In this document: positions 10,196 through 15,167 of the stretch, in pieces
Layout: each line of letters begins with the position of its first letter
Position numbering within the stretch: position 1 is the stretch's first letter
Source: a phage
Sequence record: PX880098.1
Reading direction: 5' to 3' (one strand)
Length of the DNA: 44,688 nt
Translations under genes and position numbers: made by a program
The notes under the pieces: generated by a model
Seen by the model: only the letters and a program-made list of their open reading frames with translations
The model's database searches: none
Told to the model about the DNA's origin: nothing

Positions 10196-10608
10196 TGGGC
10201 TACTTTGAGGACTTAACCAAAGCGTTCGATGTGCCGCTGGTAGCCTTTGGAACGACCAACGGCATCAAGGTAGCGCTTGAAAACATCGACGCGCCGACGT
10301 CAACAGATACGGCGTATCTGGCAAGCTACATGTTGCTGGCAGATACGGAACAGGCGGATTTGTTCTTCACGGAACAACGCTCAGGTGTTTATCAGGTTGA
10401 CATTAACTACGCATCGGTGAAAGGTAGCGCGCCAATCAATAAAATGGCAGACTTACTTAACACGGCGTTTAAAGCAGGTAAGTCATTTTCACGTAACGAC
10501 ATCTGCGCCGAGGTTCAATCGGTTAGCCTGGGGCCACTGATTGTAGAAAACGGATGGGCCAAACGACCATTGTCAATTAACTTTATTGCATTCACCAAGA
10601 GGCTGTGA
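10192..10608 (+). CDS. putative tail terminator protein
   Basis: 138-aa ORF immediately upstream of major tail protein gene; ATGA-coupled. Confidence 0.45.
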   Translation: MMGYFEDLTKAFDVPLVAFGTTNGIKVALENIDAPTSTDTAYLASYMLLADTEQADLFFTEQRSGVYQVDINYASVKGSAPINKMADLLNTAFKAGKSFSRNDICAEVQSVSLGPLIVENGWAKRPLSINFIAFTKRL

Positions 10609-10610
10609 AT

Positions 10611-11780
10611 ATGGCTACAACTCCTTTTAAGGGCGCGAATACCGCGCAATTCTATGTGGCGGAGACAACCCCTGGCGTAACCCCAGACAACCCTGTCTGG
10701 TCGCCGTTGCGTAACACCGGCGGTGTTCCTGCGGTAACCCGCGATGCGCTCACCTCCAACGAACTCGACGGCAGCCGTGAAACTACGTCCATCCGCACTG
10801 GTAACAAGCAGGTCAGCGGAGAGTACGCCATTGAGCTTAGCTCCCGTAGTCAGGATGATTTCCTCGCTGGTGCGATGACATCTACGTGGCAGGATGGGGT
10901 AACCTTATCCGCTGTCGGTATTACGGTAGACCCGGTAGCAAAAACTTTCACCCGCGACGCTGGCAGCTTCATTACTGACGGTGTAGAGGTCGGGGACCTT
11001 CTGTATTTTGACGCTTTAACTGGCGATAACTCTAAACCGTTCATCGTTACTGCCGTAACAGCTACTGTGGTTACAGGCGCAGGCATTCAGCACACCCTTA
11101 CCGCCGAAGGCCCTATTGAGACCGATGGAAAAACTGGCGACAAACTGGAAACCGGTAACGCATGTAAGACGTTCTCCATCCTGACATGGTTCAAAGGCCA
11201 GTGCGGGAACCCTGACGCGTACATGCTGACCAAAGGCGTGGAAATCTCCGGTTTCACCATTGAACAGGCCGTAAACGCGATGGTGACAGGAAGCTTCCCG
11301 TTCATCGGTCTGAGTCAGGAAATTCTTTCCGGCCCACCGGCAGGTTCCGACTTCTCTCAGGTCACATTCACCGATGAGCCGTTCTCATCTGTAGATGTGT
11401 CTGTGTCCGACGGTTCTACGCCGTTGCGTTGCGATACTCTGACCATCACCAACGACAACGGCGCATCTGCTCAGTTCGAACTTGGTAACAGTAGTGTTGC
11501 GTTCGTGGAGCGTGGTCGCGCGGCTAACACCTTCTCCATCTCCGGTAAGCTGTATGACATGGCGATGATTCAGAAGTTTATCAACGAGCAGCAGGTAGAG
11601 ATTAACTCTATTCTGGCTGGGGTAAACGGGGCCATGTCTTTCAGTTTGAAACGTGCGGAACTTACGGCGGTTACACCAGAGATTGGCGGACCTGAGTCAA
11701 TCACTCAGTCCATTGAAGGCCAGGCCACCGGCAATCAGTACCAGTCTTCTATTGTTATCCAGCGTATCACCTACGCATAA
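10611..11780 (+). CDS. major tail protein
   Basis: 391-aa ORF; SD AAGAGG 8 nt before ATG 10611; followed by strong terminator; position before chaperone and tape measure genes. Confidence 0.6.
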   Translation: MATTPFKGANTAQFYVAETTPGVTPDNPVWSPLRNTGGVPAVTRDALTSNELDGSRETTSIRTGNKQVSGEYAIELSSRSQDDFLAGAMTSTWQDGVTLSAVGITVDPVAKTFTRDAGSFITDGVEVGDLLYFDALTGDNSKPFIVTAVTATVVTGAGIQHTLTAEGPIETDGKTGDKLETGNACKTFSILTWFKGQCGNPDAYMLTKGVEISGFTIEQAVNAMVTGSFPFIGLSQEILSGPPAGSDFSQVTFTDEPFSSVDVSVSDGSTPLRCDTLTITNDNGASAQFELGNSSVAFVERGRAANTFSISGKLYDMAMIQKFINEQQVEINSILAGVNGAMSFSLKRAELTAVTPEIGGPESITQSIEGQATGNQYQSSIVIQRITYA

Positions 11781-11784
11781 AACT

Positions 11785-11810
11785 AAGGCCCCGAAAGGGG
11801 CCTTTTTCTT
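11785..11810. terminator. bidirectional intrinsic terminator
   Basis: AGGCCCC-GAAA-GGGGCCT followed by TTTTTCTT on plus strand; sits where plus and minus transcription converge; identical 29-mer repeated at 23352. Confidence 0.7.
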
Positions 11811-12363
11811 ACAAACCTAATTTTAAAGCAATGTCTATAACGTTCGATTTAACGTCACCGGGTATGATGTAGGTGTCGTAATCTTTTACACCATCAATAT
11901 CGTACAGGTAACTACGACTATCGCCGATGAACGTATAGCCGTCGCGGTGGAGGCGAACGATTCGCACGTCATGCCCCGCGGCGACGATAGGGGCAACTTC
12001 ACTGGCGAATCCACCGTCGGACACTACAAAAACTTCGTCGCCGTCAGGCAAGTTTTCAGCGAGATACTTACCGAAATAATCATCACCGAATACCGGTTTA
12101 ATGAATTGCTCAGAAATGGCAATCATGAACTGACGACGGGACAACCCATTAAGAAAACCCTCTGGCTTTTCTTTCCGTGCCCGGTCGTCGTAGCCGTCGA
12201 TAAATTCGTGGTAAGCATCCTGGCCTAACGCTGCCAAAGCAATATTGAACATTGGATTCTTGAAACTAGTAGTTCCTTTCGCAAAGCCCATTTCTACCAG
12301 CGCCATAGCAAGCGTGTCTTTCCCGCAACCCGCAGGGCCATTAAGAATGATTACCTTAGCCAT
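11809..12363 (-). CDS. deoxynucleoside monophosphate kinase (T4 gp1-like)
   Basis: P-loop GPAGCGKDT; C-terminal DGGFASE...VRIVRLHRDG resembles the T4 gp1 DTRQDHE...VIHVVRPG region. Confidence 0.55.
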   Translation of the reverse strand: MAKVIILNGPAGCGKDTLAMALVEMGFAKGTTSFKNPMFNIALAALGQDAYHEFIDGYDDRARKEKPEGFLNGLSRRQFMIAISEQFIKPVFGDDYFGKYLAENLPDGDEVFVVSDGGFASEVAPIVAAGHDVRIVRLHRDGYTFIGDSRSYLYDIDGVKDYDTYIIPGDVKSNVIDIALKLGL

Positions 12364-12851
12364 TATTTATTGCTCCCATGTGGTTTTAAGTGTGTAGAGT
12401 TCCCGTTACAGTCGTATTCAGTAACCGCGTGAGTGGTTATGCCGAGTTCGCGGAAATGCTTTATTACCGCCGGGGAGTCGTCGAACGCACACAAGATTCT
12501 TTCCAGCCCGATAGCGCGCAACACTTCTTCTTTAATTACGATGTCTTTTCTGTTGTCGTGTTTGCTGCGCATTATCAGCGTGTCAAACTTAACGTTATTT
12601 TCTCGCAACCATTTACGAGTCTCATCCTCAGCATCATCACTGCGCCCGGTAAGGATGATTATGGTCATCCCGGTATACCACAGTGTGTTGCACAAGTGAA
12701 TGTTGTCATATATCGGCGCATCATCTTTACAGGCTATGTTAAAAGGCTTCCACGCCCAGGTTTCGCCGTAGTTATCTTTCGGCAGCAGGTGTAACCGATG
12801 GGTGCCATCTGCCAATGTTCCATCTAAATCGAAAATTACAATATCTTTCAT
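12363..12851 (-). CDS. HAD-family phosphatase, T4 Pnk 3-prime-phosphatase-domain-like
   Basis: VIFDLDGTLA, ILTGR, NRKDIVIKEEVL and AFDDSPAVI align with T4 Pnk phosphatase motifs VIFDVDGTLA, VVSGR, TRKDDVVKEEIF, AIDDRTQVV. Confidence 0.65.
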   Translation of the reverse strand: MKDIVIFDLDGTLADGTHRLHLLPKDNYGETWAWKPFNIACKDDAPIYDNIHLCNTLWYTGMTIIILTGRSDDAEDETRKWLRENNVKFDTLIMRSKHDNRKDIVIKEEVLRAIGLERILCAFDDSPAVIKHFRELGITTHAVTEYDCNGNSTHLKPHGSNK

Positions 12852-13978
12852 CCCAGCATCTCCGGTGAAATAGTTAAACGTGCGACCTCGCCATATTCGG
12901 CGCTATAAGTAATTACGTTTGCACTACGGCCTGACATCCATCCGCCTCGCGAGGCGTAGGCATCTTTAGCCGCTAAGGTGCGGTGTTGCTCAACAATCAT
13001 GTTACGACTTTCTACAATCTTCTGGTGGTGCAGGTGGCCTACGTGGGCGTAGCTGTAAACACTCTCGCCGAACGCTTTACGGAACTTGGCAATCATAACC
13101 GGTTCAATAGCGTCGAACCGTGCTTTATGCCCGTGATGAAAGAACAGCGTCGTTTTGCCGTGTTGCACCATCTTGTAAACATCCGGCGACGTATCGACAA
13201 TCACTCGGCTGTCTTTTGAGTATAAAGTCGTGAACATTTCCGCCAACCACACAGACCCTACAGGGTCGTGATTTCCTTGCACGATAAGCAAGCGAACATT
13301 TTTGTGTTTAACCAGCGCCATATCAACAACACGACGCACCATACGAATCATGTAGCGGACCAGTTTCTGGTAGCGCGTATCTGCATCCAACACATGACGT
13401 GACTCAGGAGTAACGGCATCCAGACTATCAAAGTGCGCGAAGTCACCAAGAAGGTTAATAACCCCTGTTCCAGCATCCGGCGCTTTCTGGAACGCCGCAT
13501 CGAACCAACGAGAAAACAGGTCTTCCGCGATCTTCATGTCCCAATCGTCGCCGCTCTCGTCGGCCCATGCCAGCATACCGAGGTGGAAATCAGATACCGT
13601 GTAAAGATTAAGTAGCTTGTCGTCGCGTTTGGCGCGAACGGCTTTAACAGGTACAACTGGCGTAATCTCTGACTTCATGCCTTCGATTACGGCTTTCATC
13701 AACTCGACCTGACGTTCGGCGTCAGTATCGGTCTTAACCCATTGCAGTTTGGTGTTACCGAACTCATCCACCAGTGACGACGTTCCTTTAATCTTGTAGC
13801 CGTCCGGCACAAGGTGACTAACGTCACGCCCGTGGCCTACACCTTTCTTAGCCAGCTTCGCTTTACGGATACGAATCACGCGGTCTGAGATGCCGTATTT
13901 ACGTGCTATATCTATATTCTTCATCCCGGCGTTCAATTCTTCCTGTAACTGTTCGTCGGTTATTTTCTTATAGGCCAT
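12848..13978 (-). CDS. calcineurin-like metallophosphoesterase with N-terminal HTH-like region
   Basis: MPE motifs SDFHLG (DxH), GDFAHFD, QGNHD, HHGH, GHLHH; N-terminal NIDIARKYGISDRVIRIRKAK resembles an HTH. Confidence 0.6.
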   Translation of the reverse strand: MAYKKITDEQLQEELNAGMKNIDIARKYGISDRVIRIRKAKLAKKGVGHGRDVSHLVPDGYKIKGTSSLVDEFGNTKLQWVKTDTDAERQVELMKAVIEGMKSEITPVVPVKAVRAKRDDKLLNLYTVSDFHLGMLAWADESGDDWDMKIAEDLFSRWFDAAFQKAPDAGTGVINLLGDFAHFDSLDAVTPESRHVLDADTRYQKLVRYMIRMVRRVVDMALVKHKNVRLLIVQGNHDPVGSVWLAEMFTTLYSKDSRVIVDTSPDVYKMVQHGKTTLFFHHGHKARFDAIEPVMIAKFRKAFGESVYSYAHVGHLHHQKIVESRNMIVEQHRTLAAKDAYASRGGWMSGRSANVITYSAEYGEVARLTISPEMLG

Positions 13979-14016
13979 GCTTACTTCCTCGTGTTTAGGA
14001 TTTGTCCTATACTAGC

Positions 14017-14208
14017 TCACTTCTCTTTGACATTCGAGTTGCACGCCCAGATTAAAATAAATATCCATGGCAGCAGAACCCAGCCAAGAAACATATTAGC
14101 CATGAATATCGCCAGTTTCGCTTTATGACCCCGCATATGGGCCACTAAAAACGGGATAAAATAAACTAAAACGATAATGATTAAGAAGAACATAGTAATG
14201 CCGGTCAT
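14017..14208 (-). CDS. superinfection immunity (Imm-like) small membrane protein
   Basis: 63 aa, two TM segments; YFIPFLVAHMRGHKAKLAIFMANMFLGWVLLPWIFILIWA matches the Imm superinfection-exclusion family pattern; AT-rich. Confidence 0.6.
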   Translation of the reverse strand: MTGITMFFLIIIVLVYFIPFLVAHMRGHKAKLAIFMANMFLGWVLLPWIFILIWACNSNVKEK

Positions 14209-14249
14209 GCTGTAGCTCCTGTTTGAGTTAACATTGTTAGTGTAAGTGA

Positions 14250-14278
14250 ATAGTATCCTATTATGTTGGGGAGTGCAA
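14250..14278 (-). promoter_or_regulatory. sigma70-like promoter, family B (TTGCAC-N17-TACTAT)
   Basis: Minus-strand reading TTGCACtccccaacataataggaTACTATTCAC, almost identical to the plus-strand copy at 36092; drives the Imm/MPE/HAD/kinase operon. Confidence 0.6.
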
Positions 14279-14385
14279 GTAATGTGTTAGAATTATTTTG
14301 CGCCTAGTGTCGCACACGAAAAGCGGGTGGTTCCCGTCTGGCGCATTAACCTTAACCAGTAACCTCTTAACCAAAGGATTAAAGA

Positions 14386-14802
14386 ATGAAACTTTCTGAT
14401 TTTTATTACGAAGCTGAGGCGGAAAAAGGCGCCCGTATGCCAATCCCGCTGAAAGACGGCACCGATTCAGGGGAGTGGCTGAACGTTGTTTCACCGGAGG
14501 CAGACGTTGCCGTTAAAGCTATGAGGGCGTTTACACTTGCGTACCGTGCGGCATTAGGTAAATTGAAACCGCTTCGTGATAAATGCGAGGAACTGAAAGA
14601 TTTCTCGGAATACAATATCAAGATGGAAGACGCCGCGGCGGACCTTAACCGCCAGTTAGCACTTGAACTGGTTAACGGTTGGAGTCTCGATGATGAATTT
14701 AATGAAGAGAACCTGAATACTCTTTTTTCACAATATAAACGCCTCGCTGAACACGTTGTTGTTTTCCACAATGAACAGCTACGCCAATTGCAGGAAAAGT
14801 AG
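14386..14802 (+). CDS. tail assembly chaperone (gpG-like)
   Basis: 138-aa acidic ORF immediately upstream of tape measure gene, with downstream ORF in the -1 frame. Confidence 0.6.
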   Translation: MKLSDFYYEAEAEKGARMPIPLKDGTDSGEWLNVVSPEADVAVKAMRAFTLAYRAALGKLKPLRDKCEELKDFSEYNIKMEDAAADLNRQLALELVNGWSLDDEFNEENLNTLFSQYKRLAEHVVVFHNEQLRQLQEK

Positions 14803-14807
14803 ACGCG

Positions 14808-15167
14808 TTGCTCCAGTTTGCCCGTTGGAACTTCATAACCCGCCACAAACGGCGGGAGTTTGACAGTATCGCCGACGGGCATAAAGCCGCGCTAATTGCT
14901 ATGGGGGTTATGCAAGACGCGCCGGAAGCAACGCAGGACACAGGGCCGGAATGCCCCCCTGAGCTATTAACCACCTTCGAGAAGTACAGGGAAATCAAAT
15001 TCACCCGCCGAGTGGACGATGATGGCATCAAGATGTACCCGCGCGAACAGTTAAGATGGTCGGATTTAGTGGCGTATAGCACTGTTTCAGGCCAGAATAT
15101 AGGCATGTTTGAATCCGACATCATCATGAGCTTAGACGCTATTTTCGAGGGTAGAAACGATGGCTGA
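14808..15167 (+). CDS. tail assembly chaperone T-like segment (probably expressed as G-T fusion by -1 frameshift)
   Basis: ORF in -1 frame relative to 14386-14802, open from 14775; listed start is TTG; overlaps tape measure start. Confidence 0.45.
   Translation: MLQFARWNFITRHKRREFDSIADGHKAALIAMGVMQDAPEATQDTGPECPPELLTTFEKYREIKFTRRVDDDGIKMYPREQLRWSDLVAYSTVSGQNIGMFESDIIMSLDAIFEGRNDG

Follow-up and report, generated by a model that had tools for sequence, protein, structure and literature searches.

The polynucleotide kinase/phosphatase of phage T4 (Pnkp, or PseT; 1LTQ and 5UJ0) joins a Pnk-type kinase to a HAD (haloacid dehalogenase) phosphatase, whose substrates include 3'-dTMP as well as polynucleotides (PMC3592404). 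Pnkp1 (4XRP), another kinase-phosphatase fusion, has ligase and Hen1 partners in the bacterial Pnkp1-Rnl-Hen1 RNA repair complex. Phage T5 encodes Dmp (T5.001), a deoxynucleoside 5'-monophosphatase according to both its annotation and the literature. The dmp gene is co-transcribed with A1, whose metallophosphatase-like product is both required and sufficient for the degradation of host DNA (bioRxiv 10.64898/2026.04.02.716235). Phages T1 and TLS degrade host DNA and reuse its nucleotides by means of enzymes that have yet to be identified (PMC11447400). In Drexlerviridae, a trio of exonuclease, PNK and deoxynucleoside monophosphate (dNMP) kinase has been suggested to be a nucleotide-supply extension of the replication module (PMC13164509). 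Here, we describe a relative of these phosphatases encoded by the open reading frame (ORF) 12363-12851 on the minus strand of the phage sequence PX880098.1, of which the full 44,688 nt are referred to as the window and provide all position numbers. The ORF runs from ATG to TAA and, as judged from its sequence, encodes an active-looking, stand-alone HAD (DxDxT) phosphatase of the Pnkp-phosphatase clade with a length of 162 amino acids (aa). The gene lies in the middle of a co-transcribed and translationally coupled cassette, between an upstream metallophosphoesterase (MPE) gene and a downstream gp1-like kinase gene, and this linkage is kept across unrelated phage groups, occasionally as a gene fusion.

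The HAD protein matches the Pfam family HAD_PNKP (PF25109) with an E-value of 1e-20. The score of 74.8 bits exceeds the gathering threshold (27.6), and the match spans positions 2-140 of the 143 in the profile. Matches to Acid_phosphat_B and generic HAD models are weaker, and NT5C reaches merely E 0.051. Among the PHROG families, the best match (E 3.7e-66; positions 20-183 of a 218-position profile) is to 415, which bears the label 'polynucleotide kinase'. Of the T4-Pnk-like family PHROG 505, only the C-terminal part is matched (E 2.7e-26). When PDB sequences were searched with phmmer, the phosphatase domains of Pnkp1 (4xrp) and T4 Pnk (1ltq, 5uj0) were the sole matches. A family profile built from 74 HAD family members recovers 4xrp at 2.7e-27 and 1ltq at 5.7e-20, the latter over the whole domain (T4 residues 160-300), and its hhalign comparison with the T4 phosphatase domain yields 99.4%. 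These matches agree with the original prediction of a stand-alone homolog of the T4 Pnk phosphatase domain. The predicted motif order DxDGT, TGR, RKDxVxKEE and DD is likewise present, as DLDGT (residues 8-12), TGR (68-70), RKDIVIKEE (101-109) and DD (124-125); the strand, which that prediction did not mention, is minus. The scores for HAD_PNKP and NT5C speak against placement in a 5'-nucleotidase clade, raised there as the contrary outcome; PHROG 415 does include T5 Dmp. No Pnk-type P-loop kinase domain is found in the 162-aa polypeptide, which opens at motif I. The name 'kinase' is wrong for such a phosphatase-only protein, and the public names are inconsistent.

The catalytic positions of this clade are preserved. 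HAD motif I (DLDGT; 12816-12830, minus strand like all features of this ORF) holds the predicted nucleophile Asp8 and the predicted general acid/base Asp10, conserved in 145 and 143, respectively, of the 146 family representatives in whose alignment residue conservation was counted. Motif II (TGR; 12642-12650) contributes Thr68 and Arg70, the motif III region (RKDIVIKEE; 12525-12551) Asp103 and Lys107, and motif IV (DD; 12477-12482) the predicted Mg2+ ligands Asp124 and Asp125. Lys107 is present in every representative (146/146). The catalytic roles of the T4 residues Asp165, Asp167, Ser211, Lys258 and Asp278 have been described (PMC3592404). D8-L-D10-G-T12 aligns with T4 D165-V-D167-G-T169, and further T4/HAD pairs are R176/R19, D187/D44, S211/T68, R213/R70, D254/D103, K258/K107, D277/D124 and D278/D125, so that all ten T4-essential positions are kept, with Thr68 in place of the T4 serine. 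For the residues other than these five, the essentiality in T4 stems from the Shuman-laboratory mutagenesis. The protein would thus act as a Mg2+-dependent phosphomonoesterase with the chemistry of T4 Pnkp on a separate polypeptide. Asp8 would attack the phosphomonoester to give an aspartyl-phosphate with Asp10 as general acid/base, Asp8, Asp124 and Asp125 would hold the Mg2+ ion, and Thr68 and Lys107 would stabilise the transition state, with a presumed architectural role for Arg19, Asp44, Arg70 and Asp103.

The AlphaFold model of the HAD protein has a mean predicted local distance difference test (pLDDT) score of 92.7, which is low only in the last ~15 residues. In a structure comparison, it adopts a Rossmann-like HAD fold with the solved Pnkp phosphatases as its nearest relatives. 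A fold search of BFVD returned phage HAD or Pnk proteins only, among which T5 Dmp was not identifiably ranked. Directly after motif I, the protein carries an insert of ~14-17 aa (residues ~21-37; 12741-12791) that stands opposite gaps in T4 Pnkp and Pnkp1. The insert includes Trp34, which is nearly invariant in the family, and part of a predicted helix (residues 31-43). It occurs in T5 Dmp too, and for that reason it was considered as a mark of mononucleotide specificity. It was rejected as a decisive one because three proteins that combine a Pnk kinase with a HAD domain (P0379, P0383 and P0350) carry the insert as well and keep the conserved Trp; their family-profile scores amount to 119-149 bits, compared to 75 bits for T4.

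The second main observation concerns the position of the HAD gene. The stop codon of the MPE gene (12848-13978, minus strand) overlaps the HAD start codon (ATGA), and the HAD stop codon overlaps the start codon (TAATG) of the gene for a P-loop (d)NMP kinase of 184 aa (11809-12363, minus strand). The kinase belongs to PHROG 139, 'dNMP kinase' (E 5.6e-46). Both single-sequence and profile searches of the PDB retrieve only P-loop matches for it, namely AAA+ ATPases and adenylate kinases, and its structural model shows an NMP-kinase fold with a P-loop, for which the T4 gp1 dNMP kinase is the nearest structure. A tblastn search of the window with the T4 Pnk kinase domain found nothing. The expectation that the phosphatase gene lies upstream of a gp1-like dNMP kinase rather than a Pnk-type kinase is therefore borne out, the former being the next downstream gene on the same strand. 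The MPE (376 aa) matches PHROG 704, annotated 'DNA repair exonuclease', with E 1.7e-162. It has a helix-turn-helix-like N-terminus, weak Pfam matches (Metallophos_2, Metallophos and GerE) and the intact motifs DFH, GDFAHFD, GNHD, HHGH and GHLHH in its translation. No relatives were detectable in the PDB by phmmer, no NCBIfam model matched the MPE domain of the 376-aa protein, and BLAST gave no similarity to either T5 A1 or the phosphodiesterase (phrog_221) of the Aeromonas podophage ZPAH7B. The MPE is a putative DNase or phosphodiesterase.

The HAD gene is not rare. A tblastn search with the protein finds 1845 phage records, in which it goes by names such as polynucleotide kinase, kinase-phosphatase, acid phosphatase or HAD hydrolase, and when 1.84 billion cluster representatives were searched exhaustively with HMMER, 7869 of them matched at E <= 1e-3. 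Among the best 150 of these representatives, nearly all have a length of 140-210 aa and are thus stand-alone. Stand-alone Pnkp-type phosphatases constitute a large, already catalogued family, and the present HAD gene is a common, poorly named member of it and not an oddity. Many HAD entries from T1-like contigs have a length of 236-237 aa in databases, which may reflect differing start or extent calls.

The linkage to the kinase is also widespread, as at least 539 phage records have the HAD and kinase genes side by side in colinear order (tblastn, query P0234). The cassette recurs in Kagunavirus, in T1-like phages and in some podophages, such as ZPAH7B (exonuclease, endonuclease, an unrelated MPE of PHROG 221, HAD, kinase), of which the kinase is 45% identical to the window kinase. 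Moreover, three metagenomic proteins, P0234 (403 aa), P0235 (461 aa) and P0368, are HAD-kinase fusions. In P0234 and P0235, an N-terminal HAD domain is followed by a linker and a domain that shares 46-47% identity with the window kinase; between P0368 and P0234, identity amounts to 74%. Both P0234 and P0368 are encoded on phage-like contigs of 45-61 kb, on which the next gene is 67% identical to the window MPE. The fusions were located via the protein database and its contigs, and scans of IMG/VR for relatives of the fusion proteins yielded none. In T1-like phages, apparent fusions in which one tblastn piece covers 95% of P0234 were rejected: in Shigella phage Shfl1 (locus L002, 2947-4161), HAD and kinase are in the same frame about 108 nt apart, with four stop codons. 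Across groups, identity is higher for the MPE (53-67%, in phage Lidtsur and the metagenomic contigs) than for HAD or kinase (~45%).

In the fusions, the phosphatase-kinase order of the domains is that of eukaryotic PNKP. According to a split-PNKP explanation, the HAD protein would dephosphorylate polynucleotides at the 3' end, and the gp1-like protein, having replaced the Pnk-type kinase, would phosphorylate polynucleotides at the 5'-OH end. Broken DNA ends would be healed in this way, for example after damage by host nucleases, with host ligase or polymerase finishing the repair. The same HAD clade is indeed also fused to Pnk-type kinases (P0350, P0379 and P0383), the neighbouring MPE carries a DNA repair annotation, and a stand-alone PHROG 415 HAD gene of Stenotrophomonas phage AXL_1 (locus L010, 2995-4358) abuts an ATP-dependent DNA ligase gene with which it shares one base, suggesting healing and sealing of DNA nicks in that lineage. 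Even so, we consider a split PNKP analogue doubtful, with a small chance of being correct. A broader proposition, which we regard as rather unlikely, is that HAD and gp1-like kinase make up a new two-enzyme unit, usually split, occasionally fused and mislabelled in hundreds of phage genomes. Such a unit would be either a PNKP analogue, with a gp1/phosphomevalonate-kinase-like domain as polynucleotide 5'-kinase, or a device for coupled 3'-dephosphorylation and 5'-phosphorylation that channels 3'-phosphorylated DNA products into deoxynucleoside diphosphates (dNDPs).

Other gene orders connect the HAD family to the nucleotide pool. In phage Lidtsur, exonuclease, endonuclease VII, MPE (53% identical to the window MPE) and HAD genes are followed by one for the N-domain of a MazZ-like dATP/dGTP pyrophosphohydrolase (locus L009, 3554-3862). 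This MazZ-like N-domain is fused to HAD in P0224 and represents a second, independent tie between the HAD family and nucleotide-pool enzymes. In the T4-like Krischvirus KFS-EC (locus L007, 2998-3474), a stand-alone PHROG 415 HAD gene directly follows nrdA and nrdB, with denA and rnlA nearby; a second tblastn match in that genome is possibly a full-length Pnk. In Streptomyces phages, full-length Pnk relatives lie beside RNA ligase and tRNA genes. The latter neighbourhood, together with the RNA-repair function of the nearest solved relatives, T4 Pnkp and Pnkp1, would fit a T4-style repair of (t)RNA, in which the HAD protein removes 2',3'-cyclic or 3'-phosphates from RNAs cut by host anticodon nucleases or toxins. 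Because a ligase is missing, this explanation is very unlikely for the present cassette. Three ligases served as tblastn queries (Rnl1, an RNA ligase from an actinophage, and a DNA ligase of the ATP-dependent type); the best E-value in the window was 0.08, and neither an RNA or DNA ligase nor a Pnk-type kinase is among the annotations of a genome that is 89% identical. Furthermore, the partners with which HAD is conserved are a dNMP kinase and an MPE of DNase-like character, and 3'-phosphate removal would block the host RtcB ligation route.

The main rival to a 3'-acting enzyme follows from T5 Dmp. The original prediction left the choice of substrate between polynucleotide ends and nucleotides open, and this caution proved appropriate, with a T4 relative that acts on 3' groups and with Dmp in PHROG 415. 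A Dmp-like protein would be a mononucleotide phosphatase that hydrolyses 5'-(d)NMPs in general or only certain ones, for instance those that are damaged, modified or unwanted. In that case, HAD would adjust or clean up the nucleotide pool that arises when host DNA is broken down, and the kinase would capture the remainder. The two proteins can be aligned by hhalign (family profile against Dmp: 77.9%, E 1.9e-5, 149 columns) through motif I, the insert (HRxxx...ACKxD) and motifs II-IV. Nevertheless, direct similarity is weak: with the same family profile in HMMER, Dmp scores 23 bits compared to 75 for T4 Pnkp and 101 for Pnkp1, BLAST aligns only 48 N-terminal residues of the window HAD with Dmp (35% identity), and the Pfam match to NT5C, as given above, reaches only E 0.051. 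The shared insert does not single out Dmp, as it is also found in canonical Pnk-kinase+HAD proteins. A general 5'-dNMPase would in addition compete for the same substrate with the dNMP kinase to which it is coupled or fused, and T1-like phages reuse host nucleotides (PMC11447400) instead of discarding them, as T5 does. We therefore judge a Dmp-like activity unlikely, though it retains an appreciable minority chance.

We tentatively favour, at a little less than an even chance, a 3'-phosphoesterase that has DNA breakdown products as substrates and is part of a module for the recycling of host DNA. Three considerations lead to this preference. The window family lies far nearer to the phosphatases of the Pnkp type than to Dmp; a 3'-phosphatase can work alongside the dNMP kinase, or ahead of it, whereas a 5'-dNMPase would draw on its substrate; and the partners and neighbours of the HAD family are DNA nucleases, a ligase and nucleotide-pool enzymes. 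We infer that the HAD protein would remove the 3'-phosphate from 3'-phosphorylated DNA ends or oligonucleotides, 3'-dNMPs and 3',5'-bisphosphates. This dephosphorylation would let nuclease digestion go on and leave the products as 5'-dNMPs, which the kinase would turn into dNDPs. As a module, the three enzymes of the cassette would then recycle host DNA and supply nucleotides.

Several observations weigh against this 3'-phosphoesterase. The HAD clade holds both the T4 3'-phosphatase and the T5 5'-dNMPase, and the catalytic residues therefore do not settle regiospecificity. T5 Dmp (locus L013, 124-858) matches PHROG 415 over nearly the entire profile (E 3.6e-57; positions 1-217 of 218) and shares the insert. 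The insert occupies the C1-cap site of HAD enzymes, in which a cap generally accompanies small-molecule substrates. In T4, R246 and R279 form the sulfate site, an arginine pair proposed to hold the penultimate phosphodiester of the polynucleotide. The first is matched by R95, which is conserved in 141 of the 146 representatives, but the position of Arg279 is occupied by Ser126 in the window HAD and by Arg in only 78 of the 146. The structural matches that rank after the Pnkp enzymes are of the nucleotidase type, i.e., class B/C acid phosphatases and plant VSP. Nor would an MPE nuclease of the Mre11/SbcD type be an obvious source of 3'-phosphates, since the ends that such nucleases generate normally carry a 3'-OH. 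Finally, a literature search found no paper characterising a stand-alone member, and a search for PF25109 gave nothing.

The main import of these results is one of annotation. A large phage family is labelled 'polynucleotide kinase' though its members are devoid of a kinase domain, and the PHROG 415 label is misleading family-wide, the one characterised member, T5 Dmp, being a 5'-nucleotidase. New in the present analysis is the context, comprising the coupled cassette, the HAD-kinase fusions and the membership of T5 Dmp in PHROG 415. The interest of the locus stems chiefly from the three-enzyme cassette, the rare fusions and the matter of 3'- versus 5'-specificity. The MPE-HAD-dNMP kinase cassette is a plausible answer to the question of which enzymes degrade host DNA and allow its reuse in T1-like phages (PMC11447400), and its rare fusion forms offer a biochemical hypothesis that is simple and can be tested directly. 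If the phosphatase is 3'-specific, or the kinase a polynucleotide kinase, the pair would be a new end-processing or salvage unit. If a Dmp-like nucleotidase is coupled to the kinase instead, an interesting question of nucleotide-pool control would arise.

A megablast search with positions 11000-15000 retrieved 391 phage records. The top full-length matches are Escherichia phages with 87-91% identity, several of which are classed as Kagunavirus (Guernseyvirinae). Because related genomes measure 44-45 kb, the window, at 44.7 kb, probably represents a whole genome. The cassette is part of a group of four minus-strand genes (11785-14208) inside a rightward block of tail genes. The first of the four (14017-14208, minus strand) encodes a superinfection-immunity-like membrane protein of 63 aa (PHROG 1039, E 1.3e-22), which is annotated as such in relatives. 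The leftward group is flanked on one side by a rightward gene (10605-11780), called 'minor tail protein' or 'tail tube protein' in annotated relatives, and on the other side by a tail assembly chaperone gene. A GC-rich hairpin with T-runs on both strands (11785-11804), which resembles a bidirectional intrinsic terminator, appears to end both the cassette and the convergent tail gene. A promoter scan of the cassette gave no convincing candidate, only 9-of-12 consensus matches at a frequency equal to chance, and PADLOC reported no defence-system match for the four proteins. Upstream of the tape-measure gene, the plus-strand ORFs 14386-14802 and 14808-15167 resemble a tail assembly chaperone pair, for which a programmed frameshift is possible.

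Compared with the known systems, the window HAD protein differs from T4 Pnkp by lacking the fused Pnk-type kinase and the 7-aa insertion that T4 has after motif II. Its own post-motif-I insert of 14-17 aa, the serine in place of Arg279, the low-confidence C-terminal tail of 15 aa and the lack of a ligase partner in the window further set it apart. In PHROG terms, T4 Pnk belongs best to family 505 and matches family 415 at 86.9 bits, whereas 415 is the best family of the window HAD. Pnkp1 has no post-motif-I insert either, and neither its kinase domain nor its ligase and Hen1 partners have a counterpart here. The class B/C acid phosphatases and plant VSP (HAD subfamily IIIB, PF03767) are more remote. 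They are secreted proteins or lipoproteins with larger caps, while no N-terminal signal is found in the window HAD, of which the translation begins MKDIVIFDLDGT, directly at motif I. PF03767 is matched with a score of 39.1 (cut-off 27), but only over profile positions 77-186 of 230, and HAD_PNKP is matched much better. A link to the bacterial PUA-Calcineurin-HAD defence system was considered and rejected, as the HAD of this system is different (Pdxp-like, of the C1-cap type) and the resemblance is one of functional analogy only. That system senses m6-dAMP from phage-induced host DNA breakdown and depletes deoxynucleoside triphosphates (bioRxiv 10.64898/2026.01.15.699771); by analogy, a cassette of MPE, HAD and dNMP kinase could in principle alter the m6-dAMP signal.

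T5 Dmp resembles the window protein as a stand-alone PHROG 415 HAD with the insert and the catalytic motifs, and the A1-dmp pair of T5 parallels the MPE-HAD pair of the window. In contrast, Dmp is longer (244 aa), has additional insertions and an extended C-terminus, is expressed pre-early, is not linked to a dNMP kinase, and gave no match in a Pfam search. The direct orthologues of the window HAD are the stand-alone genes of Kagunavirus, Drexlerviridae (T1-like) and Webervirus phages, from which it differs in nothing of substance. Identity to the window HAD is 97.5% for phage ST20 and 85% for Raoultella phage RP180, and ranges around 56-58% for Klebsiella phages and 47-61% for T1-like phages. 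The orthologues share the neighbourhood of exonuclease, HAD and dNMP kinase.

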